The notes beneath the pieces are model-generated. The model was not told the DNA's origin. It saw nothing but the letters and a program-made list of their open reading frames with translations, and searched no databases. From NCBI GenBank assembly GCA_037444405.1, contig JBBIML010000010.1, positions 96,001 to 160,000 of the forward strand: DNA of 64,000 nt, written 5' to 3'. The position numbers were made by a program, and so were the translations under genes. Shown one piece after another: positions 3,341 through 62,709 of this stretch. The DNA is from Armatimonadota bacterium (GTDB lineage: Bacteria; Armatimonadota; Fimbriimonadia; Fimbriimonadales; GBS-DC). The stretch's first letter is position 1. The number at the start of each line of letters is the position of its first letter.

Positions 3341-4798
3341 TCACCATGTTCGGGTCTCCTCAACGGTTGGCTCCCGCGCCCAGATCAGCACCACTGCGTA
3401 AAACGCCATCACCAGCCACCACGGCAGCGATTCGATGCGCAGCGCGGGCCCCCACTCCGCGCCGAAGAGCATCGCCACCGCCTTCAGCCACGCGCACACG
3501 GCTTGTAGCGGCAATACGCCGATGCCCCCTGAAGTCCAGAAGAATCCACCCAGCGCCAGCATCAGATAGGCGGCAGGGGCAGCGAGCAGATTCGCAACAG
3601 GCGACAGCAACGACAGATAGCCGAAGTGATAGAGCTGAATCAGCCCGATACCCACCTGCGCACAGAGCGTGAGGGCGAACGCGGGCACAATCAGCCGCTC
3701 GCCCGCAATGCGCGCCCAGCGTGCGCGAACAAACAGCATCCAGCCCTGCCTTAGCAACCGCTCTACCCGACGATAAAAGAGCAGAATGAACAGCACCGCC
3801 GTAAACGAGTATTGAAAGCCCACCTCGAACAGCGCGTAGGGCGCGTAGAGCAGCCAGAAAGCGGCTGCCCAGCCCAGCGCGTTCAAACCGTCTGGCTCGC
3901 GGCGCAGGATGGGCGCCAGCAGATAGAGGCTCGCCATCGTCGCCGCGCGCACAATCGGCGGTCTCAGCCCCGCTAACAGCGCGTAGCCCCAGGCCGCCCC
4001 AATCAGCAACCCACTCCGCCAGCGAAAAGACGCTCGCAGGGCTATCAGCACGACCAACAGCATCTGCAACAGCATCGCCACATGCAGCCCCGAAGTGGAG
4101 AGCAGATGCCCAATCCCACTGCGCATGAACGCTTCTCGCAGCGGACGCGGGAAATCGCTCGCCGCACCCACCAGCATGCCCTCCGCGATTGCCGCATCGT
4201 CCGCAGGGAGACGCGAACGGAGTAGATTGCGCAGGGCGTAACGCCGCTCTATAAACCACCGCTGCCAGCTTGTCCGACTGGAGCGCACCACCCGAAACTG
4301 TGAATCGCTGTAGACGGTGGCGATGTAGAAGATTCGCCGCCGCTGCAGATGGCGCACCCAGTCAAATGGGATATTGGGCGGGTTGCGCGGCGTCCGCCAG
4401 CTCACCCGCGCGATAAACTCGTCCCCAAAATCGGGCGGATGGGCGACCGCATGCCGGAAATAGAGCAGCGCGTAGCCCTTCTCTGAACCCTCCACAAACG
4501 CGCAGAGCAGCCTGCCACCTGTGCGCGTCGGCTCGTGGCTGGCAATCGCTCTCAATCGCACCTCCGCAGGCAATCGAGAAGGGTTCACGGGCGCGACACG
4601 GCTCCAGCCATCATAGCGCCATCCGCCCAGAACCGCAGCCACAACAAAAAGCGTCCAGTGCGGTCGGATAAGAATCAGCAGCACGGCTCCTGACAGGCAG
4701 GCGATTGGCGGGAAAGAAAGTGCATTATGGAGCCATTCACGATAGGCGATGCCCAGCGACAGTCCCAGCGCCACCTGCAAGCCGACACGCGCCCGCAA
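3341..4798 (-). CDS. comEC: ComEC/Rec2 competence membrane protein (no C-terminal metallo-beta-lactamase domain); start uncertain
   Basis: GIGHLLSTSGLHV, PPIVRAATM, GFQYSF and SPVANLLA motifs of the Competence domain. I chose TTG 4798 to avoid a long overlap with the upstream gene. Confidence 0.88.
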   Translation of the reverse strand: MRARVGLQVALGLSLGIAYREWLHNALSFPPIACLSGAVLLILIRPHWTLFVVAAVLGGWRYDGWSRVAPVNPSRLPAEVRLRAIASHEPTRTGGRLLCAFVEGSEKGYALLYFRHAVAHPPDFGDEFIARVSWRTPRNPPNIPFDWVRHLQRRRIFYIATVYSDSQFRVVRSSRTSWQRWFIERRYALRNLLRSRLPADDAAIAEGMLVGAASDFPRPLREAFMRSGIGHLLSTSGLHVAMLLQMLLVVLIALRASFRWRSGLLIGAAWGYALLAGLRPPIVRAATMASLYLLAPILRREPDGLNALGWAAAFWLLYAPYALFEVGFQYSFTAVLFILLFYRRVERLLRQGWMLFVRARWARIAGERLIVPAFALTLCAQVGIGLIQLYHFGYLSLLSPVANLLAAPAAYLMLALGGFFWTSGGIGVLPLQAVCAWLKAVAMLFGAEWGPALRIESLPWWLVMAFYAVVLIWAREPTVEETRTW

Positions 4799-4824
4799 TA
4801 CTGGCGCCAGTTGAAAGCGGGTGC

Positions 4825-5412
4825 CTATTCGCGACAGATGAAGCACAGTCGCGCCGATTCGGTGTGCCACTCGCCGCATCGCTCGCACCGACGCCAGCCC
4901 ATCATTAGGCGCCACTTCTCGGAGCGCAAGGATGCCGCGCGTGCCCGATAGATTGCCGCGCGCAGGGACGGCTCCTCTATCACGGCAACACTGCGCTCTA
5001 ACGCTGCCTGCTCTTCAGGGGTGAGCTCGATATGCTCTGGCAAAATCTCACTCATGGAACCCTCATCCCCCAGCCTCCCTCTCCCCGAGCCTGGGGAGAG
5101 AGGAGCAAAATCGGGCAGTGGATTGCGCACCACGAACCGAATCTCCCTGAAGGCATCGATACCACATTCGGCATTAAGCCGCTCCAGCAGGGTTTCTTTC
5201 TGGAACTGCAGTTCCTGTGCCCAGGCGCTGCTTTTGACCGCGACCCAGAGCGTGCCGCCCTCCATGCGCAGCGGTCGCGCCGCCTGCGCAACGGTTTCAC
5301 CCGCTATCTGCGACCATGACAGCAGTGCGCGGCGTACCCGAAACTCGCGCTCGATGCCCAGCTGCTGCAACACGCTCCAGAGCCATCTACCCACAGGCTC
5401 AAAGCCGCTCAC
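4825..5412 (-). CDS. dciA: DUF721/DciA family protein with C-terminal Zn ribbon
   Basis: WSQIAGETVAQAARP...GTLWVAVKSSAWAQELQF signature; CERC...CFIC tail; typical position downstream of recF. Confidence 0.85.
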   Translation of the reverse strand: MSGFEPVGRWLWSVLQQLGIEREFRVRRALLSWSQIAGETVAQAARPLRMEGGTLWVAVKSSAWAQELQFQKETLLERLNAECGIDAFREIRFVVRNPLPDFAPLSPGSGRGRLGDEGSMSEILPEHIELTPEEQAALERSVAVIEEPSLRAAIYRARAASLRSEKWRLMMGWRRCERCGEWHTESARLCFICRE

Positions 5413-6532
5413 GATAAACCCTCCCGTTCTCGATGCGGAACAGCGTCGCCTCTTTCAGCCCGATCTCGTCCAGTGCGCCCAGATCGGTGCAGGTGAGAAA
5501 GGTCTGCACACGCGGCTGAAGGAACTGCACCAGCCGCATGCGCCGCTCCGGGTCCAGATCCGAAAACACATCATCCAGCAGGACGACAGGGCTTTCTTCG
5601 AGACGACCCTCCAGCAGAGGCACTTCAGCAAGGCGCAAACTGAGCGCACAGGTGCGTTGCTGACCCTGCGAGGCGAACAGGCGCGCGTCATGCCCGTCGA
5701 TGAGCATCAGAAAATCGTCGCGATGGGGTCCCACCAGCGTCATCCCGCGCCGGATCTCCTCCGATTCAACCTCCTGAAGGGACGACTGAAGGGCATACGC
5801 CCAATCCTGCTCGCTGAAGCTTGACCAGTTGTCCTCACTGCGCGGCAAGCCGGGCTGATAGAGGAGCTGGAAGACCTCCTTGCCGCCTGTGAGCGTGGTG
5901 TGAACGGGCGTGATGAAAGTTTGCAGTTGCTCAAGGAATCGGCGGCGTTCATCCATCAGGCGCGCGCCGTATTTGATGAGCTGCTGGCTCCATTCGGGCA
6001 GGCTCTCCAGGGTGGCGTGCCCCTCCAGATGCATGCGCAGCAGCGTGTTGCGCTGTTCCAGACAGCGACGATATTGCACCAGTGAATAGAGATAGCGATG
6101 GCTGATGAGGCTCAGCTCGCTGTCTAAAAAGCGGCGTCGCTCCGCAGGCTCGCCCCGAATCAGCAGCAAATCCTGCGCGGTGAAACAGACCACCTTCAAT
6201 CGCCCGATCAGCTCGCTCTGACGCGATACGGGCTGCTCGTTCAGCAACACCGTGCGTTTGCCCGATAGGGGAGTGTGTATCACCAGCTCATCTTCGATCT
6301 CATGCCGCAAAAAGCGCACCGAAAGAAAGGCTTCCGATTCGCCCCAGCGTATCAGGTCGCTCTCGCGCACGGGGCGCAACGGGCGAAAGGTGCTGGCGTA
6401 GTAAAGGGCTTCCAGCAAATTGGTCTTGCCCTGCGCGTTGGCGCCCACCAGCACATTCAGCCCCGCACCTGGCTCAATCTGCGCCTGTTCATAGTTCCGA
6501 AAGTTTCTTATACGCAGCTGACGCACCCGCAT
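5399..6532 (-). CDS. recF: DNA replication/repair protein RecF
   Basis: GANAQGKTNLLEA Walker A, GPHRDD, SQGQQR, LLDDVFSDLD. Confidence 0.97.
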   Translation of the reverse strand: MRVRQLRIRNFRNYEQAQIEPGAGLNVLVGANAQGKTNLLEALYYASTFRPLRPVRESDLIRWGESEAFLSVRFLRHEIEDELVIHTPLSGKRTVLLNEQPVSRQSELIGRLKVVCFTAQDLLLIRGEPAERRRFLDSELSLISHRYLYSLVQYRRCLEQRNTLLRMHLEGHATLESLPEWSQQLIKYGARLMDERRRFLEQLQTFITPVHTTLTGGKEVFQLLYQPGLPRSEDNWSSFSEQDWAYALQSSLQEVESEEIRRGMTLVGPHRDDFLMLIDGHDARLFASQGQQRTCALSLRLAEVPLLEGRLEESPVVLLDDVFSDLDPERRMRLVQFLQPRVQTFLTCTDLGALDEIGLKEATLFRIENGRVYRERL

Positions 6533-19206: not shown

Positions 19207-19307
19207 CCCGCCCAAAAACCCCCAAAACTCACAGGTGCTGCCGTGCCGTTGTGTGGAACGATGGTACTGGCGTGAGAGGGTTCGCCTTCGCACGCAGGGA
19301 GAGAACC

Positions 19308-19673
19308 ATGCGAAATCGGAAGGCAAGCCGGCGGGGGTTCACGCTCCTGGAGATTATGGTCGTGGTATTCATTCTGGGCATCCTGATCACGATTGCGGTG
19401 CCCAGCTGGATGAACGCGCGCTCGCGAGCGCAGGCGCGCACCTGCTCCGCCAATCTGCGCCAGATTCACCAGGCGAAAGAGATGCACGCACTGGCAAATC
19501 GCCTGCCCGATGGGACACCCGTACAGATGAGCGACCTGGTGCCGCAGTATCTGCAGGCGGAGCCGTTCTGTCCTGCAGCTGGCGGCGCGGCGTACACGGT
19601 CAACCCCGTCGGCACCGCTCCCACCTGCCCCACTGGCTTGCCGAACCACACCGTCGACTGGAGAGGGGATTAG
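19308..19673 (+). CDS. Type IV pilin / pseudopilin (ComGC-like)
   Basis: RRG|FTLLEIMVVVFILGIL prepilin cleavage motif; Cys-containing C-terminus. Confidence 0.88.
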   Translation: MRNRKASRRGFTLLEIMVVVFILGILITIAVPSWMNARSRAQARTCSANLRQIHQAKEMHALANRLPDGTPVQMSDLVPQYLQAEPFCPAAGGAAYTVNPVGTAPTCPTGLPNHTVDWRGD

Positions 19674-19676
19674 CGT

Positions 19677-20159
19677 ATGCGAACATGCAGAGGCTCGGCA
19701 CTCACGGAACTGCTGATTGCGGTATTGCTCGTCACCCTGCTGGTGCTATCCATCGCTGCCATTACGCCGACAACCAGCCGCATGCAGACCCAGGCACAGC
19801 AGTACACCTACGCGCTGAACCTCGCTCAAACAGTGCTGGAGCGCGTGCGTACGCTTGAGTTCAATCAGATCACCTTCGAGGGCTTGCAGCAGAACGGGCT
19901 GGCACAAACGCTGGTGCTGAGCGAACCGAATCACTTCATCGCTCAGTTCACCACTGTGTCCACACCAGGGGGAGGCACCATCAATCTCGGCACGAACCTG
20001 CGCGAAGCGGTCGGCACCATCGAGGTGTTCAATCTGACGACCAACAACGACATCGCCATCGGGCTGAAGACGATTTTCGTGACGATTCAGTGGCGGGAGC
20101 CGCGCACCAATCGCGTTCAGCAGGTTCAGCTGGCGACCTCCGTCGCCAGCCTGCAATGA
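19677..20159 (+). CDS. Minor pilin (PilV-like)
   Basis: RG|SALTELLIAVLLV prepilin-like motif; C-terminal KTIFVTIQW. Confidence 0.7.
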   Translation: MRTCRGSALTELLIAVLLVTLLVLSIAAITPTTSRMQTQAQQYTYALNLAQTVLERVRTLEFNQITFEGLQQNGLAQTLVLSEPNHFIAQFTTVSTPGGGTINLGTNLREAVGTIEVFNLTTNNDIAIGLKTIFVTIQWREPRTNRVQQVQLATSVASLQ

Positions 20160-20162
20160 AGC

Positions 20163-20264
20163 GCCCCCTCTCCCCTCTGGGGAGAGAGTTGGGGTGAGGG
20201 GTTCGAGCAAGCAGGGGAGATCATGCCCCCTCACCTGTACCCTCTCCCCCGCTGGGGGAGAGGG
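20163..20264. repeat. CCCTCACCC-family repeats (two copies) inside the pilin operon
   Basis: CCCCTCTCCCCTCTGGGGAGAGAGTTGGGGTGAGGGG and CCCCTCACCTGTACCCTCTCCCCCGCTGGGGGAGAGGG. Confidence 0.8.
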
Positions 20265-20295
20265 CTATACGGAATCACAGGGGAGGATGCGACCA

Positions 20296-20856
20296 ATGAG
20301 ACGAAAACGCAGCCGCGCACGCGGCTCGATGATGCTGGAGCTGGTGTTCGCCAGCGCGCTCTCGGTGATGGTGATTGCGCTGCTGGTGGCAACGGAGCTG
20401 GGCGCCCTGCGCGCCTATCAGCGCGCCCTCAACCAGAACACCGCCAGCCGCGGCGCCTATAACGCCCTGCGCGAGATTCGCGGGCTTGCCCAGCAGGCGG
20501 TCAGCGTGACAATTAGCGGCGGCACGCAGGCAACCCTGCTGATGCCCCAGCGCGACGCCAGCGGCGCCATCCGCCTGCCCATCCAGCCCGATACAGCGAA
20601 CCCGTTCAGACTTACCGTCAACTTCTCGGCAGGCACGCTGACGCTCACCAGCAACGCGGGCACCCGTGTCCTGCTAACTGGTGTCCGCGACCGCACGCCG
20701 CAGGGCACAACCTACACGCCCTTTTCTTTCACCCAGTACGCGCCAGGTGTGGCGGCGCTCCATGTGCGCCTCAGCGTCCAGCAGGGCAATACCACCACAG
20801 CCACCACCGCATGGTTCGAAGAAACTATCCTGTTGCGCAACGCACCAGTTCAGTGA
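20296..20856 (+). CDS. Minor pilin (PilW-like)
   Basis: RG|SMMLELVFASALSV prepilin-like motif; C-terminal ETILLRN. Alternative start at 20287. Confidence 0.7.
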   Translation: MRRKRSRARGSMMLELVFASALSVMVIALLVATELGALRAYQRALNQNTASRGAYNALREIRGLAQQAVSVTISGGTQATLLMPQRDASGAIRLPIQPDTANPFRLTVNFSAGTLTLTSNAGTRVLLTGVRDRTPQGTTYTPFSFTQYAPGVAALHVRLSVQQGNTTTATTAWFEETILLRNAPVQ

Positions 20857-20880
20857 ACACACTATGGGGAGGGAGATACG

Positions 20881-22746
20881 ATGAGGAAGCGCACACAGCG
20901 TGGCAGCACGATGGTCACCACGCTCATCACGGGCGGGCTGACTATCGTCACGGCAACCGCTTATCTGGATTTAGCAACGCAGGATTTACGCACGGCGAAC
21001 GCTCGCATGCGCGAGGTCATCACCCAGAATCTGGCGGAGGCAGGGCTGAACGCCTCTATGCAGCAGCTCTGGCGTGAGTTCAAAATCAGCCAGCGGTTCG
21101 ACACTTTCGATAGCACCCTGCGCGACGCCTCACCCGATAGCCCTGCACGCACATGGAACGGCGTTCTCGGCACAGTGGGCAACTACACGGCGTCGGTCGT
21201 GGGCTATCAGACGATCGATTCCTACACGCGGCGCGTCACCCTGCGCGCCGTCGGCTGGCAGGATCGCAACGGCAATGGTCGGCTCGATTCAGGTGAGCCA
21301 CGCCAGGTGCTCCAGCAAACTTTCGATCTGCAACTCTCGCGCTCTGGCGTGTTCGACTACGCTTACTTCGTGAACAACTACGGCTGGATGTACGGCTTCG
21401 ATGGCGAGAGCCTGGTGACCAATGGCGATATGCGCTCCAACGGCGACTTCGAATTTCGCTACGGTCGCCCCACCATCAACGGCACGATTATCGCCGCGGC
21501 GAACGACAAGCTCACGCCCAGAGCGAACGGCTACATTATCGTGGAGGGCGGAACCGCGCCCCGACAGTGGACGACCAGCACCTATCGCTCCCGACAGGAT
21601 TCGAACTACCGCGGGCAGGGACCCTATATGCGTCAGGGCTACTCCAGCTCAGTGCATGGCGCAATTGGCAGCAGCACCTTCAACGAGTGGCGCGACTATC
21701 TGTACGAAGCCAGCGGGCAGATGATAGGTGGCTCGCCGTTTGGCGCCGTGCTTGCCGATTCGCGCGGCACACGCCGATTCGATGGCACCGTGCTGGACAA
21801 CCGTCCCACCCGCGAGATGGTGCTGCCCAACCTGAACGATCTGAACTATTATCTCAACCTCTCCCGCACATGGCGCGATCCACGAGCCACCTATCGCGAC
21901 GGCACATCGAACCCCTACTACAATCAGGAGGCATTCGTGGAGGTGTGGAACCCCAGTCGCAACCGTTACGAGCGCATCTCAACCAACGGCGTCATTAACG
22001 GTAGCGTCGCGCTGATTGGCTACCGAAACTATCCCATCCGCATTCACGGACCCGTCACCGTCACGCAGGATGTGGTCATTCGCGGCTATGTGGTGGGTCA
22101 GGGCACGCTCTACGCAGGGCGCAATGTGCATATCGTGGGCGACATCATCTACAAGAACCCGCCCGACTTCCGTGGGGGCGACTTCAACACCGTGCTGAAC
22201 AATGTGGAGAAGAAGGACGCGCTGGGGCTGGCAGCGCGAGGCAGCGTAATGATGGGCAATACGCGGCGGTTCAGCGACCCCTATCCCCTGCGCTACATGA
22301 CGCCGCCCTTCACACGCGGACGCTACGACGAGAACGGCAACTGGATCCCGCCCTTCAACGCCCTTGAACGCGACGAAACCGGACGCTACCGCTATCAGTC
22401 GGCTTATGGACGCGCTGACCAGAGCGACATCGAACAGCTCTCCCTACAAGTCGATATCGACCAGAACGGCACCATCTCCAGCGATGAACGCGGCATTTCG
22501 CGCATCGACGCCGTGCTGTTCACGAACTTCGTTGGCGGAGGGAACCTCGCCACCGACGGGCTGGGGCTGACCATCAACGGCACCATCATTGCCAAAGATG
22601 AGGCGATGGTGCTGTGGAGCATCCCGATGTGGCTCAACTACGACTGGCGCATCCGCGAGCGCAGCCTCGACGACACACCGCTCATCAATATCGAGCTGCC
22701 GCGCGTCGCCGCCGTGCGCCGCATGGCGTGGCAGCGCGTTTATTGA
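20881..22746 (+). CDS. PilX-like minor pilin / pilus tip-associated protein
   Basis: RG|STMVTTL (no E5, PilX-like), NLAEAGL motif, EF-hand-like DRNGNGRLD and DIDQNGTIS, C-terminal NYDWR. Confidence 0.72.
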   Translation: MRKRTQRGSTMVTTLITGGLTIVTATAYLDLATQDLRTANARMREVITQNLAEAGLNASMQQLWREFKISQRFDTFDSTLRDASPDSPARTWNGVLGTVGNYTASVVGYQTIDSYTRRVTLRAVGWQDRNGNGRLDSGEPRQVLQQTFDLQLSRSGVFDYAYFVNNYGWMYGFDGESLVTNGDMRSNGDFEFRYGRPTINGTIIAAANDKLTPRANGYIIVEGGTAPRQWTTSTYRSRQDSNYRGQGPYMRQGYSSSVHGAIGSSTFNEWRDYLYEASGQMIGGSPFGAVLADSRGTRRFDGTVLDNRPTREMVLPNLNDLNYYLNLSRTWRDPRATYRDGTSNPYYNQEAFVEVWNPSRNRYERISTNGVINGSVALIGYRNYPIRIHGPVTVTQDVVIRGYVVGQGTLYAGRNVHIVGDIIYKNPPDFRGGDFNTVLNNVEKKDALGLAARGSVMMGNTRRFSDPYPLRYMTPPFTRGRYDENGNWIPPFNALERDETGRYRYQSAYGRADQSDIEQLSLQVDIDQNGTISSDERGISRIDAVLFTNFVGGGNLATDGLGLTINGTIIAKDEAMVLWSIPMWLNYDWRIRERSLDDTPLINIELPRVAAVRRMAWQRVY

Positions 22747-22747
22747 T

Positions 22748-22837
22748 GCCCTCACCCCCAGCCCCTCTCCCACGCTGTGGGAGAGGGGAGCCAAAATCCC
22801 TCTCCCTCACAGGGGAAGAGGGTACGGGTGAGGGGGC
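22748..22837. repeat. CCCTCACCC-family repeat pair
   Basis: CCCTCACCCCCAGCCCCTCTCCCACGCTGTGGGAGAGGGG...GAAGAGGGTACGGGTGAGGGGG. Confidence 0.85.
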
Positions 22838-22865
22838 AACCCAACTTCACCGAGAACGAGGAGGG

Positions 22866-23348
22866 ATGAACATGAGAAAGCAACATCTGACACGATTTCT
22901 GGGCACGATAGCGATAGCCAGTCTCTGGCTCTTCGGCTGGAGCATCGTCTCGGAGCATCGCTCGCCGAACGAGCGACCCGAATGGTGGAAGCCTTACGAG
23001 AACGCCGCGCCAATTCAACCGTCGCCGACGGTGGTCGTGCCGCAGGGCGATGTGCCCACCGTTGTGGAGGAAGCCGTCACGCGCAGTGCGCCCGCTGGCG
23101 TGCCTGACACGCTGGTCATCCAGCCCCAGAGTGGGGTCGCAACCGTTAGTCTGCCCCGCGCCATCGATGGCGAGCAGGTGATGCAGCAGGCGAATCGCGA
23201 TATTGAGCGTCAGCGCGTGGCGTTCTGGCGTCCGTTCGCGCTGTTTGGCGGCTTCCTGTTGCTGGGCGGCGGCGCGGTGTTTGGGCTTCTGCGCTGGTGG
23301 AGCCAGCAGGTGCCCGCGCCGCCCCCTGTCCGTCGCCGCCGCTACTAA
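22866..23348 (+). CDS. Hypothetical membrane protein (two TM segments)
   Basis: GAGGG RBS; N- and C-terminal hydrophobic helices; basic tail RRRRY. Confidence 0.65.
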   Translation: MNMRKQHLTRFLGTIAIASLWLFGWSIVSEHRSPNERPEWWKPYENAAPIQPSPTVVVPQGDVPTVVEEAVTRSAPAGVPDTLVIQPQSGVATVSLPRAIDGEQVMQQANRDIERQRVAFWRPFALFGGFLLLGGGAVFGLLRWWSQQVPAPPPVRRRRY

Positions 23349-23367: not shown

Positions 23368-24585
23368 CTACAGCCGTCCGCGCCCGCTGGTCAGCACGCC
23401 AGCGACGGGCGCGGGCGGCAACGCCCGAACCGCCAGCGCGAGCGCAATCACCATATCGTCGTGGAAGCCGCGCTCCGCGCCGAAACGCACCCCTGTCGGC
23501 GTCGCGCTCACCTCAAAGTGATACAGCTCCTGCAACAGCCTGCCATCGGGCAACAGCTGCAGCTGCTCGCGCTCCAGCATCAACGCGAGGCTCTCCACCA
23601 GCGACTGCTTGACCGCGCGGGTGAAGGTCAGCCCTTCCACAGGCACGGATAACGCCGATTGCAACGCCTCCACCAGTGGGTCGCCGACACCTGTGCGGTC
23701 GCACAGCACGCGCTGAACGCCATGCTGGTCCATCAATCGGGCAATCTGCGCCACCTGCTCCGCCCACGCCAGCCCCTGCCAGCGACGGATGTCCAGCATG
23801 CGCGCCGCCTGCTGGGAGCCATGCAGAATCGCCACCGCTGTCCAGTCCCGATAGCGTGCCCAGTCGACGCCCGCCACCACCATCCCATCGGGCTGAAGGC
23901 GCAGCAGCATGGCGCGATCGACCCACTCGGTGCGGAACAGCTGCCCCGCGTCGTCCAGGAACGCTGCGCCGTACTCCACCTGGAACTGGCGTTCGCTCAT
24001 CAGCTGCGCCTGCATCAGCAGGGTGCTGGGCGAGAGCAGCGGGTTCTGCCACGAGGGGCTGCGCAGGCTCCAGACGCGCTCGCTGCCCTGCTGACCCTCC
24101 CGATAGAGCCGATAGAAGTAGTTTTTGCCGCGCGGGGTGGAGACCAGCGCGAGCCGACCGCCCGTGTCGCTGAGCATCGGCATCAGCACCTCTATCACCA
24201 CCTGTTCGGGCACATAGGCGGCTTCGTCCACCACAATCAGGTGCGCCTTGCGCCCGCGCAGGAAAAGCCCGCCGCGCGTTGCCGGGCGCGCCCACAAGCG
24301 GCTCGGACCGATGGTCAGCACGGGCGCTGGTGTGCGTCGCACCTGGGGTTTCTCACCCACCTGACGCAACAGTCCGATCACCCGCTCAAACGGGATCAGC
24401 GCCTGCTCCTGCGAAGGCGCCACGATCAGCACCATACGGGGTGCAGGCTCCAGCAGGGTGCGGGCGACCTCCACCGCAATCACTTCCGTCTTGCCCCAGC
24501 GTCGCCCGCACGCCAGCACCCGAATGGGCGCCCGCGACTCCAGAAACGCGCGCTGCCCCGCATGGGGATACCAGCCCGCAATCAT
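23368..24585 (-). CDS. Phage-type terminase large subunit (Terminase_6-like), isolated
   Basis: Q motif PHAGQ, Walker A GRRWGKT, Walker B LIVVDEAA, coupling motif STPRG, nuclease acidic motifs GVDWA, CDRTGVG and HDDMVIALALA. Confidence 0.92.
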   Translation of the reverse strand: MIAGWYPHAGQRAFLESRAPIRVLACGRRWGKTEVIAVEVARTLLEPAPRMVLIVAPSQEQALIPFERVIGLLRQVGEKPQVRRTPAPVLTIGPSRLWARPATRGGLFLRGRKAHLIVVDEAAYVPEQVVIEVLMPMLSDTGGRLALVSTPRGKNYFYRLYREGQQGSERVWSLRSPSWQNPLLSPSTLLMQAQLMSERQFQVEYGAAFLDDAGQLFRTEWVDRAMLLRLQPDGMVVAGVDWARYRDWTAVAILHGSQQAARMLDIRRWQGLAWAEQVAQIARLMDQHGVQRVLCDRTGVGDPLVEALQSALSVPVEGLTFTRAVKQSLVESLALMLEREQLQLLPDGRLLQELYHFEVSATPTGVRFGAERGFHDDMVIALALAVRALPPAPVAGVLTSGRGRL

Positions 24586-24658
24586 GGCATCTCACTCCCG
24601 CTGATGAAGCCAGCACGCTTATAGATGGACAACCGTAGCAGCAGGTACAATCTCTGCT

Positions 24659-46938: not shown

Positions 46939-47538
46939 ATGGCACTCTTTCCACCCGCGTTGCGTCAGTTGATTACGCTGCTGGAGCGGTTGCCGGGCAT
47001 CGGACCCCGCTCGGCGCAGCGGCTCGCACTCTACCTGATCCGTCGTCCCCCAGACGAGGTGGAACAGCTCGCGAGCGCCCTGCTCAACGCCCGCCACAGG
47101 GTGCGCCTGTGCGAGCGATGCTTCTTTCTAAGCGAACAGCCCCTGTGCGAAATCTGTCAGGACAGCACGCGCGACGCCAGCCTGCTCTGCATCGTTGCTG
47201 ACCCGCGCGATGTGGTCTCGCTGGAGCGACTGGAACAGTATCGCGGGCTGTATCATGTGCTGCACGGGCTGATCTCGCCCGCAGAGGGCGTCCAGCCAGA
47301 AGACCTGAAGATTCGGGAGCTGATAGAGCGCGTGCGAGCGCAGCCCCCGCAGGAGGTAATCCTGGCGACTCCACCCACCGTGGAGGGCGACACCACCGCG
47401 CTCTATCTGGCACGGCTCCTCAAGCCGATGGGGATTCGAACCACGCGCATCGCCTACGGCATGCCCGTCGGCGGCGAGCTGGACTACGCCGACGCCGCCA
47501 CGCTTGGCTACGCCCTCAGCGGCAGACGCGAAATCTGA
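46939..47538 (+). CDS. recR: Recombination mediator RecR
   Basis: LPGIGPRSAQR HhH, CERC...CEIC, YHVLHG, VEGDTTA, GGELDYAD. Confidence 0.96.
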   Translation: MALFPPALRQLITLLERLPGIGPRSAQRLALYLIRRPPDEVEQLASALLNARHRVRLCERCFFLSEQPLCEICQDSTRDASLLCIVADPRDVVSLERLEQYRGLYHVLHGLISPAEGVQPEDLKIRELIERVRAQPPQEVILATPPTVEGDTTALYLARLLKPMGIRTTRIAYGMPVGGELDYADAATLGYALSGRREI

Positions 47539-49907: not shown

Positions 49908-50150
49908 GTAGGGGCGCATGGCAGTGCGCCCCTGCCACACCTACAGGGTATCGTGGGGCGTGGGAGACGCTGCGTTGGGCGCGAGGCGCGTGATCGGACA
50001 CCCCGCCCGCGCGATGGTAGCATGGGGAGAAGAAAGGTTTTGGCGCCTGTTCCTAATATGACACAGTAAAGACGCGATCCCTGCACGCCTCTCGCAAGCG
50101 GCTGGTGCTGCTGGCAATCGGGTAGAGGCGCACAGATGCGCGCCTCTACC
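49908..50150. repeat. Cluster of GTAG-type REP-like palindromes
   Basis: GTAGGGGCGCATGGCAGTGCGCCCCTGC (49908), degenerate GTAAAGACGC...GCCTCT (50066), GGTAGAGGCGCACAGATGCGCGCCTCTACC (50121-50150). Confidence 0.7.
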
Positions 50151-51699
50151 GTTGCAGGCGCGGGAAGAGAGGTTTCGGCGGCTGAAGCGGATGACCCGCG
50201 GGCAATCGCTCCAGCCAAGGCGCCTCGCTCCAGCGCGGCACCTCCGGCAGGTTCAGAAAGGCAGCCATCGCACGGGCGACCGCCGGCATCACGGGTTCCA
50301 CCAGCATGCAGAGCAGGCGCACCGCCTCCAGCCCCGCGTACAGCACCGTCCCTGCCCGCTGAGTCTCACCCGCCTTCATCAGCGACCAGGGCGCCTGCTC
50401 GTCATAATAGCGGTTAACCGCTGCGATAATCTCCCACGCTTCGCGCAGTCCGCGCGGGAAATCGACCGCCTCGTACGCCTCCGCCACCCGCGCCACCTGC
50501 TGACGGAACACCGCCACCAGCCCATCGTCCACCTGAACCCCTGAAGGCACGCGCCCCTCAAAGTAGCGATGCACCATCGACAGCGTGCGATGCACCAGAT
50601 TGCCCAGGTCGTTCGCAAGGTCGCCATTATAGCGCGTCTCCAGCCCCAGCAGGCTGAACTCGGCGTCCGAATCGGTGGGCATCTCGCGCAGCATGTAGTA
50701 GCGGAAGGCGTCGACCGCGTAGGGCAGCTCACAGCCGGACGCCTGCGAGAGCATCTGCGCCACCTCTAACGGCGCATACACATTCCCCAGCGACTTGGAC
50801 ATCTTCTGCTGGTTCACCACCCACCAGCCGTGCCCATAGAGGCGAACGGGCAACGGGATGCCCAGCGCCATCAGCATCGCGGGCCAGATGGTCGCATGGA
50901 AGCGCGGCAAAATATCTTTGCCCATTAGCTGCAAATCGGGCGGCCAGATATCGAGATAGTCCTCCCCGCGCTCCAGCCAGTCGGTCGCGGTGAGGTAGTT
51001 CAGCAGGGCGTCGAACCACACATAGACCACCGCGCCGCTCTCATCGTCGGGCACGGGCACGCCCCAGTCGGTACCCGAGCGGCTCACTGCCACATCCTGA
51101 AGCCCTTCGGCGATAAAGCCCAGCGTCTCGTTGCGCCGCACCTCTGGCTGAACGAACTCGGGGTGGCTCCCAATATGCTCGCGCAGGCGCGATTCGTAAG
51201 CGGAGAGCCGAAAGTAGTAGCACGGCTCGTCGCGCCACTCCAGCGGCTTGCCGCAGTCAGGGCACGCTCGCTCCGCGCCAATCTTGCTGGATGCCCAGAA
51301 GGTCTCGCACGAGATGCAGTACCAGCCCTGATAGCGGCCCCTGTAAATATCGCCCTGCTCGCGTAGGCGGCGGAACACCGCCTCCACCGTGCGCTTATGG
51401 CGCTCTTCGGTCGTGCGGATGAACACATCGTACTCGATGTGCAGCGACTGCCAGGTGCGGGCGAACACCTCCGCCATCTCGTCCACAAACTGCTGGGTCG
51501 GCTTGCCCTGCTCCTGCGCGACGCGATGCACTTTGGGCGCGTTCTCGTCCGTGCCCGTGAGGAAGTAGACCGCGCGCCCGCGCTGCTTCTGGAACCGTGC
51601 GCAGGCATCCGCCACAATCGTGGTGAGCGCCGTGCCAATGTGCGGCACGCTGTTCACATAGTAAATCGGCGTCGTGATGTAGTAGCACCGTTTGCCCAT
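50146..51699 (-). CDS. metG: Methionyl-tRNA synthetase (short form)
   Basis: YITTPIYYVN..PHIG, TGTDE, YVWFDAL, GKDI, KMSKSLGN. Confidence 0.96.
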   Translation of the reverse strand: MGKRCYYITTPIYYVNSVPHIGTALTTIVADACARFQKQRGRAVYFLTGTDENAPKVHRVAQEQGKPTQQFVDEMAEVFARTWQSLHIEYDVFIRTTEERHKRTVEAVFRRLREQGDIYRGRYQGWYCISCETFWASSKIGAERACPDCGKPLEWRDEPCYYFRLSAYESRLREHIGSHPEFVQPEVRRNETLGFIAEGLQDVAVSRSGTDWGVPVPDDESGAVVYVWFDALLNYLTATDWLERGEDYLDIWPPDLQLMGKDILPRFHATIWPAMLMALGIPLPVRLYGHGWWVVNQQKMSKSLGNVYAPLEVAQMLSQASGCELPYAVDAFRYYMLREMPTDSDAEFSLLGLETRYNGDLANDLGNLVHRTLSMVHRYFEGRVPSGVQVDDGLVAVFRQQVARVAEAYEAVDFPRGLREAWEIIAAVNRYYDEQAPWSLMKAGETQRAGTVLYAGLEAVRLLCMLVEPVMPAVARAMAAFLNLPEVPRWSEAPWLERLPAGHPLQPPKPLFPRLQR

Positions 51700-51787
51700 C
51701 GCTATCCCGATAGAGTTTACCTGCTGGCGCATGGGGTATAATATCGCTGGCTGCACCTCCTATGGGCAGCCGAAAGGAGGATCAACG

Positions 51788-57348: not shown

Positions 57349-59337
57349 ATGAATCGAATCGGCTGGATGGTGGGGCTGGGGTTATTGTTGATCGGGATCG
57401 GCTGGTGGCTGATGCGCCCCAGAGCCAGCTCCATCGAACCGCCACAGGAGGCACCCGCGATGCAGGATCGGCTAACCGCGCCCGATTTTCCCGAAGGGCT
57501 GGAATGGCTCAACACCGACCGACTACTCAGCCTGCGCGACCTGCGCGGCAAAGTGGTGCTGCTCGACTTCTGGACCTACTGCTGCATCAACTGCATGCAT
57601 ATCCTGCCCGACCTCAAGCGGCTGGAACACAAATATCCCGACGAGCTGGTGGTCATCGGCGTCCACTCCGCCAAGTTCTTCACCGAGCAGGATTCCCGCA
57701 ACATCCGTCAGGCGATTTTGCGCTATGAGATTGAGCATCCTGTCGTGAACGATAACCAAATGCTCATCTGGGATCGGTACGGTGTGCGCGCCTGGCCCAC
57801 CCTGGTGCTGATCGACCCGCAGGGCAAAATCGCCCATTACCGTTCGGGCGAGGGGGTCTATGCGGCGTTTGACCCGATTATCGCGAAGGTGATAGCGGAG
57901 TTCGACAGGCGCGGTCTGCTGGATCGCACGCCGCTCAGGTTCAAGCTGGAGCGCGAGCGCAAGCCCATCACCCCGCTCAACTTCCCTGGCAAGGTGCTGG
58001 CAGATGAAGCCACCAATCGCCTCTTTATTGCCGATTCGAACCACCATCGCATCGTGGTGCTGTCGCTGAAGAACAACAGCGTGCAGATGGTGATTGGCAG
58101 TGGTCAGCCGGGCTTGCAGGATGGCGATTTCGCTGCTGCCCGCTTCCGCAACCCGCAGGGCATGGCGTTTGACCCAGCCAACGAAACACTCTATATCGCC
58201 GACACCGACAATCACGCCATTCGCAAAGCCGACCTGCGCACGCGCAGGGTAGAGACGCTGGCGGGCACAGGCGAACAGAGCCGCTTCTACCCGCCGCAGG
58301 CAGGCGCTGGCAAGCAGACCGCGCTCAGCTCCCCATGGGATGTGGTGCTGCACGGGGAGATGCTCTATATCGCGATGGCGGGCTGCCACCAGCTCTGGCG
58401 ACTGAACCTGCGCACGGGTCAGGTCGAGCCGCACGCGGGCACAGGGCGCGAAGCGCTTATCGACGCGCCGTTGTCTATGGCGGCGCTGGCGCAACCCTCG
58501 GGCATCACCACCGACGGCACGCGCCTCTATTTTGCCGATAGCGAGGTCAGCAGCATTCGCGCCGCCGATATCGACCCGAATGGGCGCGTGGAGACGCTGG
58601 TCGGCGGCGACCTGTTCGACTTCGGCGACCGCGATGGTGTCGGGCGGGAGGCGCGCCTGCAGCACCCGCTCGGCGTCGCCTACCATAATGGCATGCTCTA
58701 TGTCGCCGACACCTACAACAACAAAATCAAACGCCTTGACCCCCGCACGCGGCGAATCGAAACATTTCTGGGCACGGGCGAAGAGGGCGCACGCGACGGC
58801 GAGAACCCCACCTTCGATGAGCCCGGTGGACTGAGCGTGGCGCACGGCAAGCTCTACATCGCCGACACCAACAACCACCTCATTCGTGTGGCGGATTTGC
58901 AGACCCGTCGCGTGTCGACACTGGTCATCAGGGGGCTGGAGCAGCTGAGACCGCCCGCGGAAGTGATGCGCCCGCAGGTGATGGAGCTGCCCGAAGCGGC
59001 GGTCGCGCCCAAAAACAGCCGTCTGCGCCTGCAGATTCGCCTGCCCGACGGCTACAAGCTCAATCCGAACGCCCCTTCGCGCGTGTCCATCAAGGTTAAC
59101 GGTGCTACCATCGATGGGCAAACCGCGATCGACCGTTCCCTGACCACCACCGCGCTGGAGCTGCCGCTGAAACTCAGCGGGCGTACCGCCACGCTGGAAA
59201 TCGATCTGCTCCTTTACTACTGCCAGAGCGGGCGTGAGGCGCTCTGCTTCATTCGTGAAGCCCAGCTCAAACAGCCCCTGCGACAGAATGGCAACCCTGC
59301 CACTGTCTCCATCGAATACACGGTGCCGCCGCCCTAA
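57349..59337 (+). CDS. Thioredoxin-like plus NHL-repeat protein (NHLRC2-like)
   Basis: [20 protein letters not shown], repeated YIAD/YVAD NHL blades; N-terminal signal/TM segment. Confidence 0.92.
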
Positions 59338-59386
59338 GGGGATTGAGGCTCGCGCCCCTCTGGGGCAGGGGTATACTTCTGACAGG

Positions 59387-60385
59387 ATGGCGATTGAGAC
59401 AGAGAAATGGTTGACAGAGGGTGAGGCGCGTGCCGTCGCAGAGCAGGCTCGACAGCTGATTCTGGCGGTGGAGCAGGTGATTCTGGGCAAGACGGAGACC
59501 GTGCGCCTGATGGTGATTGGTCTGCTCAGTCGGGGGCATCTGCTGATTGAGGATATTCCTGGCGTCGGCAAGACCACGCTCGCCCGCGCGATTGCCCGCG
59601 CGATCGGCGGTCAGTTCCGACGGATTCAGTTCACTCCTGATCTGCTGCCTGCCGATGTTACAGGTTCGGTCATCTACAACCAGAAAGTCGGGCAGTTCGA
59701 GTTTCACCCTGGCCCCATCTTTGCCAATATTGTGCTGGCGGATGAGGTCAATCGCGCCACGCCAAAGACGCAATCCGCGCTGTTAGAGGCGATGGAGGAG
59801 CGTACCGTGTCCATCGAGGGCACGACTCACCCCCTGCCGGAACCGTTCCTGGTGATCGCGACGCAGAACAACATCGAGATGGTGGGCACCTATCCGCTGC
59901 CCGAAGCGCAGATGGACCGCTTTTTCGCGCGGGTCTCGCTCGGTTATCCGTCCCCTGAAGTCGAGGCGCGCATTCTGGAGACGCGCCAGATCCATTCGCC
60001 GCTGGACGAGCTACAACCCGTGCTGACGCCTGAACGGTTGCTGGAGTTGCAGGAGGCGGTGCGACGGGTCTATGTCAGCCCTGCGGTGCGGCAATACATC
60101 GTGGGTGTGGTCACGGCGACGCGCCATCACCCGCAGATTATGCTGGGCGCCAGCCCGCGCGGCTCGCTGGCGCTGATGGTTGGCTCGCAAGCCTTGGCGG
60201 TGCTGAACGGGCGGCATTATGTGTTGCCCGACGATGTGCAGCGGATGGCAGTGCCTGTGCTGGCGCACCGGCTCATTTTGCGAGCCGACCTACAGGGCGT
60301 CCAGCCTCGCGCAGAACAGGTTATCCTGCAGATTCTGAGGGAGGTGCCCGTGCCTGTGGGGGAGGTCGTTGGACAGAATGGATAG
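59387..60385 (+). CDS. MoxR family AAA+ ATPase
   Basis: [51 protein letters not shown]. Confidence 0.95.
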
Positions 60386-61466
60386 AGAGAGCCTGCGCAA
60401 CGCGAAACTGATGGCGCTGATGGCAGCCACCTCGTTCATCTTTTGCTCGGGCGTGACCACAGGCAACCGTCAGATGTACTGGATGGCAAGCCTGCTGGGT
60501 GTGCTGTTGGGTGGCGCGTACCTGCTGGTACACTGGCTGACGCCGCGGGCGCAGGTGGCTCGCCAGTTGCCACCAGAGGTGCGCGAAGGGGAACTGTTCG
60601 CCGTTGCGCTGGAGGTGGTGCTGCCGTTGCGCTGGTTGCCACTCTGGTATCGTGTCCACGATCGAGTCTCATCCGGACTGAACGCCCACGAGGCGCCCAT
60701 GCTCGTGCTACCTGGCAAGCATGCCCGGATCAGCTACTCGGTCATACCGCTGCGACGCGGCAAGCACACCGTTGGTCCAGTGGAGCTGATTGTTTCCGAC
60801 ATGCTGGGTCTATTCGAGATGAGGCGGCTGCTGCCCGTCACCGATCAGGTGCTGGTGTTGCCGCGTCCTGTGCCGTTGCCGAACCGAATCTGGGAGGGGG
60901 GCGGACGCGGGCGGGCGCATCAGGTGGCGACCCGCAGCCAGCAACAGGGCGAAGGCACCGACTGGCACGGTACGCGCGAATATGTGCCCGGCGACCCGCT
61001 GCGCCGAATCAACTGGCGGGCTACCGCACGGCATCAGCAATGGCATGTGCAGGAGTTCGAAACAAGCCACCTTGCGCCGCTGCTGATCGCCATCGAGCTG
61101 GCACCTCGCTGGGAGCGTGAAGCCGACGGCGTGTGCCCCCATTTTGAGCGAGCCATCCGACACATCGCCTGGCTGGTGATGGAAGCCCCGCGCAGCGGCA
61201 TTCGAGTGCTGTTGACTGCGCCCGGCTGGGATGGGATTCAGGTAGAAAACGCTTCGCGACAGGCGACGATGAATGCGCTACGGGCGCTGGCGACGCTCCA
61301 GCCTGAGTCGAGCGTTTCCCTGGCACAGCAGCTGCCTGCGCTGATTCAGCAATACAGCGGGCAATATGCTATCTGCCTGTTTGTGCCACCTGCCGAGCGC
61401 CGGCACTACGAGTCGCTTGTTCAGCCCTATCTCCAGCAGGGTTATATCGTTGAGGTGTATGCGTGA
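60378..61466 (+). CDS. DUF58 domain protein
   Basis: RRGKH..GP....[23 protein letters not shown]; follows moxR. Confidence 0.9.
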
Positions 61467-62709
61467 GACACGGCAGGAACCACCCGCGAAATGGGTGCTG
61501 ATGGGCGTGCCGGTGCGCCCCGGCATCGCGATGGGACTGGGCGCACCCCTCTATCTGCCCACGCCTGGTACGCCCGCATGGTTAGATCCGCGCCTGTTCG
61601 CCGCAAACGAAGAGGAGTGGCTGGCTATCGAGTACCGCATGCCGACCGAGCCGTTAGAGGTGATTGCCTTTGTGCATCGGCTGGACGATGTGCCGCCGCT
61701 GCTGGCACCGAATGTGCGCGTGGTGGGCTGGGTGGTCGAGCAGGAGCCGTCACCGCCACTACCCGGTGTGCCTATCGTGCAAGTCGCTCGCCTGCCGCGT
61801 ATCCTGCCTCCAGAACCGCTGACCATTATCGACGCTAACGCGGGGATTGTTTATATTGAGCCGAGCGCGCAGACACTAAACCGCTATCAGGCGCAACTGT
61901 TGCGCGTGGCGAGCCAGACCCGCTTCTATCTGGAGATGGAGCATCTGCCCAGCCGCACCTGGGATAACCGCGAGCTGCCCGTCGGTGCATGGATGCAGAG
62001 CTGGGATTCGGTGGAGGTAGCCGTTCAGCATGGCGCCGATATTATCGCCGTGCGGAGCCAGCACCCTCCCGATAATTTTGGCACGCTGGGACAGACGCTG
62101 GGCGGTAAGCCGCTCTGGTGGATCGCGCCTGCCGATTTGCTGTGGGATGAGTCCCTCATCCCCGCCCTCTGGAAATGGAGCGCAACAATCGCCCTTACCT
62201 GCCTGCTGGAGCAGCCCTCCAGCCATGCGTCGGAGCAGGTCGCCATGTGGTGGACAACAATGGAAGCAGCCCGCGAAGCGCTCAAACGCGACCACCAGCC
62301 CATCGGTACACTCTCAGTGGGGATCGCCATTCGCTGGCGGCAACCCCGCCAGCAGCCTCCATCTGATGCCAGACAGACGCCTGTGAAAACCCTCTGCTGG
62401 TTCGGACAGGCGCTCAGCCAGAATCGCACAGTGGAAGCCCTGCTGTCGCAACAGAGCTGGGCAATCCGATATGGTCGGCAGCGCGCGCTGGTGCTGGATG
62501 TGGTGGAGCCTGTTCAGCTCGCAGTCGCGCTGGGGCTACAACCCCATGTGCTCCTGGTGCCTCCAGAACAGGTTCAAATCACCAAGCAGATGATAGCGCG
62601 ATTAGGCATCGACGAGTGCCACCACTGGCTTCTGCAGCGCCTGCAAGACTGGGAGGATGCAGAGATTGTTCGGCAACCTGAAACCTGGCTTCAACTCCGC
62701 ACGGGCTGA
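61459..62709 (+). CDS. Divergent PTS enzyme I (PtsI)-like protein, probably non-catalytic
   Basis: GVPVRPGIAMG, IIDANAGIVYIEP...Y and LPSRTWDNREL...AVQHGAD mirror the PtsI layout; the phospho-His motif and GLYRTE motif are not visible. Confidence 0.55.
   Translation: MRETRQEPPAKWVLMGVPVRPGIAMGLGAPLYLPTPGTPAWLDPRLFAANEEEWLAIEYRMPTEPLEVIAFVHRLDDVPPLLAPNVRVVGWVVEQEPSPPLPGVPIVQVARLPRILPPEPLTIIDANAGIVYIEPSAQTLNRYQAQLLRVASQTRFYLEMEHLPSRTWDNRELPVGAWMQSWDSVEVAVQHGADIIAVRSQHPPDNFGTLGQTLGGKPLWWIAPADLLWDESLIPALWKWSATIALTCLLEQPSSHASEQVAMWWTTMEAAREALKRDHQPIGTLSVGIAIRWRQPRQQPPSDARQTPVKTLCWFGQALSQNRTVEALLSQQSWAIRYGRQRALVLDVVEPVQLAVALGLQPHVLLVPPEQVQITKQMIARLGIDECHHWLLQRLQDWEDAEIVRQPETWLQLRTG

Follow-up and report, generated by a model that had tools for sequence, protein, structure and literature searches.

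To our knowledge, gene transfer agents (GTAs) occur in few lineages, all of them with tails, and a head-only design is so far known only from mobile satellites. In the Rhodobacter capsulatus GTA (RcGTA), the head-tail genes lie in one cluster. Phage-inducible chromosomal islands of the capsid-forming kind (cf-PICIs) are, in the part of their description that we draw on, mobile and self-packaging, with identical copies across species; they encode terminase, portal, capsid and connector proteins with no tail, and release tail-less, DNA-filled capsids that are completed by foreign phage tails (10.1101/2025.02.11.637232). For the Armatimonadota, passages of one study report 'incomplete' viral regions in three metagenome-assembled genomes (MAGs) of Fimbriimonadales, one of them a 7.1-kb region listed as 'Portal; head; capsid', with no att site and scored 'Incomplete' (PMC8597652). 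The GTA-related passages available from a further paper concern Rhodobacteraceae only (PMC13055281), and the literature searched, with supplements not covered, yielded no description of a GTA or domesticated head module in Armatimonadota. Here we analyse a 64-kb stretch of an Armatimonadota MAG from the Fimbriimonadales (the window) and the solitary gene for a large terminase (TerL) that it contains. We propose, with a probability of about 0.6, that this TerL drives DNA packaging for a phage head-and-neck module that was domesticated long ago, has been passed on vertically and now occupies four loci. On this reading the module comprises TerL, a Mu-type portal, a scaffold/protease-like protein, a cement protein, the major capsid protein (MCP), two small proteins, an adaptor and a stopper.

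The window (G000:C10:96001-160000) belongs to a 2.68-Mb genome, G000, of 40 contigs and 98.9% completeness. Its TerL gene is a real, intact large terminase, present as a single copy in G000. The open reading frame (ORF) encodes 405 aa from an ATG start, and every motif that an earlier note on this DNA had listed is in the translation (PHAGQ, GRRWGKT, VVDEAA, STP, GVDWA, CDRTG and HDDM). Residues 27-222 match Terminase_6N (PF03237, E 1.7e-9) and residues 239-386 match Terminase_6C (PF17289, E 1.7e-9), both over the curated Pfam cut-off, and the protein matches PHROG 2, 'terminase large subunit' (E 3.3e-42). NCBIfam gave only a T7-type match, which was sub-threshold. Across an alignment of 33 orthologues, 55 of the 405 positions do not vary; among them are the Walker A (LACGRRWGK) and Walker B (DEA) motifs, STPxG and the acidic residues D241, D296 and D375-D376. 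The ATPase domain of phage P74-26 (4zni, E 2.4e-14) and the TerL nuclease of phage G20c (5m1f, E 5e-17) both match the protein, and D241, D296 and D375-D376, which we take to be the catalytic nuclease residues, align with GADFG, ADTWG and HDDIV of 5m1f. The gene product therefore has both halves of a Terminase_6 (T4/Mu gp28-like) enzyme: an ASCE ATPase at the N-terminus, complete with Walker A, Walker B and coupling C motifs, and at the C-terminus an RNaseH-like nuclease whose acidic residues are conserved. In public records the protein is annotated as 'terminase' or 'phage FluMu gp28-like', and the contigs that carry it reach 2.99 Mb. The small terminase subunit (TerS) and portal genes expected beside it are not there in G000; the portal gene is on another contig and no TerS was found.

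Of the head module, the window contains TerL alone; the remaining members lie on other contigs of G000 (Table 1), so that the scattered single-copy portal, capsid and neck genes which the earlier note had asked for do exist. The lead to the portal came from five more distant genomes of the order, in which TerL is followed by a same-strand gene for a Mu-type portal (PF06074, E 1e-61 to 1e-69; phrog_113). The G000 portal gene stands between sugar-kinase-like and glutamine-synthetase-like genes, as judged by their N-terminal sequences. Twenty kb along the same contig is a three-gene operon for a scaffold/protease-like protein (C12), a cement-like protein and, last, the MCP. Portal PF06074 and gpT capsid PF10124, the pair that marks a Mu-like head module, are thus both present, while a search of G000 for the Mu F-like head morphogenesis protein PF04233 gave no match, and the RcGTA-type portal PF04860 and HK97-type capsid PF05065 are absent from this genome. 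The GC content at third codon positions (GC3) of the head-module genes is 0.81-0.84, which is host-like. Just upstream of the portal gene, four ORFs (C29:1049-3834) form an island of atypical composition, with GC3 of 0.47-0.65 against about 0.8 in the host.

The neck genes were identified through relatives. In maps of 22 capsid loci, four small genes (c8, c4, c3 and c6) directly follow the MCP gene in families f3 and f5, and some of them do so in G004 and G008. Profiles of c3 and c6 matched the end of contig C17 of G000, where ORFs in the same operon also match c8 and c4. The two small head-module proteins of this neck operon are of membrane/coiled-coil type. The four-gene operon is intact in 10/10 further loci of family f1, with the c8 match missing in L126, which ends at a contig end. 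A structure model of c3 (pLDDT 81) found no Foldseek match at E ≤ 0.001 in PDB or BFVD. With VIA-align, nine of its ten best chains are phage head-to-tail adaptors (Z 4.9-7.6), including those of Bxb1 (Z 7.6) and SPP1 (gp15, Z 6.3) and the protein YqbG (Z 5.8); the remaining chain is a protein designed de novo, and no unrelated natural fold scores above Z 3.7. There is thus moderate support for c3 as a head-to-tail adaptor. The c6 model (pLDDT 89) aligns to the stoppers of T1 (Z 11.1), lambda (Z 10.8) and SPP1 (gp16, Z 8.3), and to the RcGTA virion chain 6tba_3A (Z 8.0). At Z ≥ 8 it has 24 chains, and among the matches listed almost all are phage neck proteins; c6 therefore models as a lambda-FII/T1-type stopper.

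Table 1. Positions of the head-module genes and of other features in the window. Plain numbers are window positions; C29 and C17 are other contigs of G000.
Feature	Position	Strand	Evidence or remark
TerL, large terminase (ATPase motor + RNaseH-like nuclease)	23368..24585	-	Pfam and PHROG matches
Portal, Mu-type, 380 aa, intact, solitary	C29:3874-5016	+	PF06074, E 1.3e-68 and 1.2e-67
C12, scaffold/protease-like, 279 aa	C29:26548-27387	-	phrog_976, E 7.4e-5
Cement-like or virion protein, 137 aa	C29:26122-26535	-	phrog_1731, E 3.5e-27
Mu-gpT MCP	C29:25181-26125	-	PF10124, E 4.5e-61; phrog_371
c8	C17:66345-66590	-	match to c8 of relatives
c4	C17:66018-66329	-	match to c4 of relatives
c3, predicted adaptor	C17:65601-65999	-	profile E 8.9e-41; structure model
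c6, predicted stopper	C17:65287-65601	-	profile E 3.9e-11; structure model
Divergent intergenic region, TerL / M28 peptidase gene	24586..24658	.	73 bp, from coordinates
160-aa protein, hydrophobic ends, no family match	22866-23348	+	converges on TerL stop
ComEC	3341-4915		PF03772
RecF-like SMC_N protein	5399-6532		
RecR	46939-47538		

We compared the head genes with a host marker, methionyl-tRNA synthetase (MetRS), and found that the identity of TerL, portal and MCP to their G000 counterparts declines in step with it. For MetRS, TerL, portal and MCP respectively, identity is 97, 98, 98 and 98% in G002; 84, 81, 87 and 89% in G001; 79-81, 64-69, 73-79 and 76-79% across genera g3-g5; 60, 51, 58 and 68% in G008; and 43-48, 43-47, 44-48 and 54% in family f5. 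Synonymous divergence (dS) of TerL is nearly equal to that of MetRS in six genome pairs (TerL/MetRS 0.101/0.123, 0.80/0.95, 0.194/0.186, 0.442/0.438, 0.918/0.862 and 0.656/0.691). Nei-Gojobori estimates of the ratio of nonsynonymous to synonymous divergence (dN/dS), taken from pairs with dS<1, are 0.07-0.24 for TerL, 0.09-0.16 for portal, 0.05-0.10 for MCP and 0.07-0.20 for MetRS, so the relaxed selection that the earlier note had named as a refutation did not appear. The MCP of G023 was left out of dN/dS and of the MCP tree owing to a faulty extraction (pN 0.72); its ORF is intact at 309 aa. In the trees of TerL (33 rows), portal (23) and MCP (21), families f1, f3 and f5 each come out as a single group, and the branching order inside f1 is the same in all three. 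These phage-derived structural genes are thus maintained by the host, through vertical descent and purifying selection, as GTA genes are.

Among related genomes the head genes are near-universal. In a sample of 41 genomes (G000 and 40 relatives), TerL was matched in 35, as the earlier note had required of a maintained gene, with a long match in 33; the portal was found in 37, the MCP in 35, C12 in 33, c3 in 31 and MetRS in 40. The single-sequence search for c3 missed genus g8, where the gene is present by clustering. Losses are joint. Three genomes of 96-99% completeness (G030, G039 and G040) lack all five head genes, also by Pfam models, and nothing is left of the head genes in G007 but a 60-residue TerL fragment. 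Frames are intact except for a TGA in the TerL of G014 and split matches in fragmented assemblies. Intact frames, low dN/dS, presence in 31-37/41 genomes and host-like GC3 are not the traits of a decaying prophage.

The module is dispersed. G000 carries it at four loci: TerL (C10), portal (C29), C12-cement-MCP (C29) and c8-c4-c3-c6 (C17). In the closed genome G012, TerL lies at 2.273 Mb, the portal at 1.233 Mb, C12-MCP at 1.411-1.413 Mb and c3 at 2.556 Mb, a span of 1.3 Mb, so no single headful could carry the whole set. The host neighbours of the head loci vary even between species of one genus and map to many G000 contigs, which argues that general rearrangement, not mobility of an element, explains the scatter.

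We then extended the comparison past the order to an evenly drawn set of 201 Armatimonadota genomes, with TerL matches counted at E ≤ 1e-10. TerL was found in 82/201 and the portal in 77/201. The two coincide in several families outside the order, namely f18 (TerL 18/18, portal 15/18), f25 (8/9 and 8/9), f29 (3/4 and 3/4) and f9 (3/3 and 3/3), and many other families have neither. The f18 set is dispersed, with TerL at 0.094 Mb and portal at 2.357 Mb (2.3 Mb apart) in the closed genome G174. By contrast, 5/10 fetched loci of other families (G177, G130, G186, G108 and G212) hold one compact cluster in the order TerS-like–TerL–portal–C12–cement–MCP–(small ORFs)–c3–c6, after which it stops. TerS candidates of these clusters are matched by PHROG families of the small terminase subunit (E 4.1e-9 and 1.1e-5). 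The clusters are flanked by host genes for metabolism, transport and signalling, and the flanks of four of them showed neither an integrase nor a tail gene, att sites not having been searched for. We read the compact TerS–TerL–portal–…–stopper cluster as the ancestral form. Identity of MetRS to G000 plateaus at 41-53% outside family f1, so the deeper families cannot be ordered by identity; that the module descended vertically throughout the phylum is plausible.

Host-type genes also occur within otherwise compact head clusters (L127, L132 and L129). In G177, cement and MCP are separated by a GNAT acetyltransferase gene, a position that a 202-aa ORF takes in G130, and in G212 a GGDEF/PocR gene on the opposite strand separates C12 from cement. 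The stopper c6 of G177 is followed by an Amidase_3 endolysin-like gene and by one of the NlpC/P60 type.

Several results weigh against a working, domesticated head module. A TerL usually requires a TerS, and none was found in G000 or the order; nor is there a conserved small ORF upstream of TerL in 12 order-level loci. One TerS candidate from jackhmmer (C28:16718-17002) proved to be an antisense frame within a 513-aa gene, and was rejected as a false positive. For tails, sheath (PF04984), tape measure (PF10145) and baseplate J (PF04865) gave no match in G000, a search confined to these three Pfam families and a look at the flanks, which diverged tail genes could have escaped. No 9-mer is common to the upstream regions of all four dispersed operons in f1 genomes, and hence no regulon is marked. 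The public runs that contain the stretch are four DNA runs from one study, none recorded as RNA. None of c3, c4, c6 and c8 has a Pfam or PHROG match above cut-off, the structural match of c3 is middling, and the protease likeness of C12 is weak (phrog_976, E 7.4e-5). The trees are quick maximum-likelihood searches with SH-aLRT support only. Finally, TerL and the capsid genes are not strictly coupled. In G011 (95% complete), portal, MCP, C12 and c3 are all present and TerL went unmatched by protein search and Pfam model, which reflects a gap in the assembly or else a true loss of just the motor. G035 has two TerL paralogues (L039 and L040; C2:748933-750171 and 904048-905262), one beside the portal gene and an extra, solitary one next to the gene for ribosomal protein L11.

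On balance, the interpretation offered in the earlier note is supported. Its dispersed GTA-like system is borne out by gene content, descent and selection; since no tail genes were found, 'GTA-like' holds for the head only. By analogy, the module most likely works like a GTA or like the capsid of a tail-borrowing satellite, and belongs to neither family. We infer particle assembly, cargo, release and benefit along the following lines. Some host signal would lead the capsid operon to build procapsids on the portal, TerL would pump DNA in and cut it by headful, and the adaptor and stopper would seal the portal. The cargo would most likely be host DNA, because the genes lie far apart. The cell would release tail-less, DNA-filled capsids, and these might serve DNA transfer directly, as in a GTA, or might be given the tails of co-occurring phages, as happens with cf-PICI capsids.

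Tail capture could also be the purpose of the module. A domesticated head module induced by infection might package host or phage DNA, capture the tails of the invader and so lower its burst, with DNA transfer as a by-product. The predicted adaptor and lambda-FII/T1-type stopper have both been kept, which would suit such a role. In phages, a stopper of this type forms the surface for tail docking. Head, packaging and neck genes with no tail are also the gene content of a cf-PICI, as far as the available part of its description goes (10.1101/2025.02.11.637232). Yet none of the loci has a linked inducer, repressor or phage-sensing gene, and they show no association with defence islands, PADLOC not having been run. 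We consider this use of the module unlikely.

The earlier note had offered, beside a dispersed GTA, a TerL repurposed as a cellular DNA motor or nuclease that is independent of any capsid gene. The gene is a single-gene unit in the window; its pseudopilin neighbours, which hint at DNA uptake or export, recur in 6/26 mapped loci from three genera (g1, g4 and g5); and the solitary extra TerL of G035 and the capsid genes without TerL of G011 would fit a motor with a life of its own. However, no genome without portal, MCP, C12 and c3 retains a whole TerL (G030, G039 and G040 have none, and G007 has only the fragment), and because it is lost together with the capsid genes a motor acting alone is not favoured. 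TerL also adjoins the portal gene in 5/12 mapped order-level TerL loci and sits in a full head cluster in 5/10 loci of other families, the pilin neighbourhood is absent in g3 and beyond, and the TerL tree matches the portal and MCP trees. We therefore regard this alternative as improbable.

Related phages do circulate in these bacteria, as family f2 indicates. There, portal and MCP lie on long branches and the terminase is a different one, of 477-520 aa (phrog_38); the cluster (L060, L082 and L083) runs on in prophage-like fashion into genes for a Mu Gp36-like adaptor and into larger genes, with a downstream protein of about 740 aa. This is probably a genuine prophage, kin to the ancestor of the domesticated set. 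This clustered Mu-like module, together with the similar regions in Fimbriimonadales MAGs that passages of one study score as 'incomplete' prophages (PMC8597652), would be expected if all the genes were remnants or members of a selfish phage or satellite lineage that repeatedly infects Armatimonadota, and were not host genes. Against this, synonymous divergence equals that of a housekeeping gene in six pairs, the host families reappear in three gene trees, distances between the genes reach 1.3 Mb (G012) or 2.3 Mb (G174), frames are nearly all intact, and four compact-cluster flanks contain no integrase (att sites were not searched for). A selfish lineage is thus a quite improbable source. Least credible of all is a capsid shell for a non-DNA use with TerL retained by chance, for which the precedent is the domestication of HK97-fold shells as encapsulins, since the ATPase and nuclease residues of TerL are invariant in 33 orthologues and conservation extends to the portal, adaptor and stopper, whose roles are confined to letting DNA in and keeping it there.

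The TerL gene and the neighbours that the earlier note described for it are confirmed. TerL stands as a single-gene unit, divergent from an M28 peptidase gene that starts at 24659 and convergent with the gene for a 160-aa protein; the 73-bp divergent gap presumably holds the TerL promoter. Its GC3 of 0.84 compares with 0.7-0.85 for most window genes. ORFs of high-GC loci were called with a GC3-weighted caller, and a Pfam scan of 61 window ORFs found no phage structural, integrase or TerS family besides TerL. These 61 (7 + 54) are the 60 called ORFs minus an 88-aa one at 22752-23018, plus 22614-23348 and 22866-23348. On the M28 peptidase side are genes for a cupin, FliH, FliI and FliJ; on the other is the pseudopilin cluster. 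ComEC and prepilin-type proteins are present in the window as described, but a location near oriC was not confirmed: no DnaA or DnaN family matched among the scanned ORFs, and only the RecF-like SMC_N protein and RecR were found.

Some further features of the window were recorded. The pseudopilin-like cluster (19251-22746) encodes proteins of 140, 160, 220 and 621 aa, with an N_methyl match in the first only. TerL lies beside the same pseudopilin genes in 6 of the 26 mapped TerL-bearing loci (the window, L021, L023, L024, L027 and L045); in genera g1, g4 and g5 the cluster stays beside TerL with a 156-177-aa ORF in between, and in the mapped loci of genus g3 and beyond it is absent. Neither Pfam nor PHROG gave a match for the ORFs at 59267-62709, of which five are small and on the minus strand (168, 70, 85, 112 and 117 aa) and one, of 447 aa, is divergent. 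The MetRS frame (50146-51756) encodes 532-540 aa in G000, G002, G007, G011 and G013 and about 650-680 aa in most relatives, which suggests that a C-terminal domain was lost or split off in some lineages.

It is possible, and we put this forward only tentatively, that much of the Armatimonadota carries a host-owned, tail-less capsid machine of TerL, portal, capsid and neck, selected since before the families diverged in spite of its scatter, and that this represents a new class of viriform delivering host DNA either tail-less or with borrowed tails. If the module works, it brings to the GTAs a little-studied phylum whose members live in hot springs, the subsurface and soil, a phage ancestry of another kind (a Mu-type head) and a head-only design. 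It would also show that the genes of a multi-protein virus assembly line can be scattered over a megabase and still stay under selection, which implies control in trans and offers a clean test case for how co-functioning genes survive without clustering. There are practical consequences as well. Prophage finders report such genes as 'incomplete prophages' or lone terminases, and virus counts in metagenomes that are based on terminases will score these host genes as viruses.

The nearest TerLs of cultured phages are only 28-36% identical and belong to Thermus/Meiothermus phages (Riverbug, MMP17, phiFa, P23-45, P74-26 and G20c), whereas orthologues across the order are 38-98% identical, so TerL does not cluster with recent temperate phages as it might have. 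The nearest phage MCPs are Mu-like (30-35% identical). Mu-like phage head modules have the same families in the same gene order as the compact Armatimonadota clusters; the module described here differs in having no PF04233, transposase, tail or lysis module, and its identity to any cultured phage is lower than that to orthologues across a bacterial order. Unlike the 'incomplete' prophages described in the part of the Fimbriimonadales study cited above, it shows no decay, with intact frames, dN/dS well below 1 and conservation across families. It resembles cf-PICIs, to the extent that their description was available, in carrying head, packaging and connector genes without tail genes, and differs from them in forming no discrete mobile island, as its genes are dispersed and co-diverge with the host and the flanks of four compact clusters showed no integrase, att sites not having been searched for. 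[quoted passage not shown] RcGTA differs in host phylum and in gene families, with the Mu-type portal PF06074 and gpT capsid PF10124 here and PF04860 and PF05065 absent, and no tail genes or TerS were found for the putative system described here. Its head genes are scattered as single genes and mini-operons, unlike those of RcGTA. The module is thus set apart as neither a member of the RcGTA family nor a cf-PICI.

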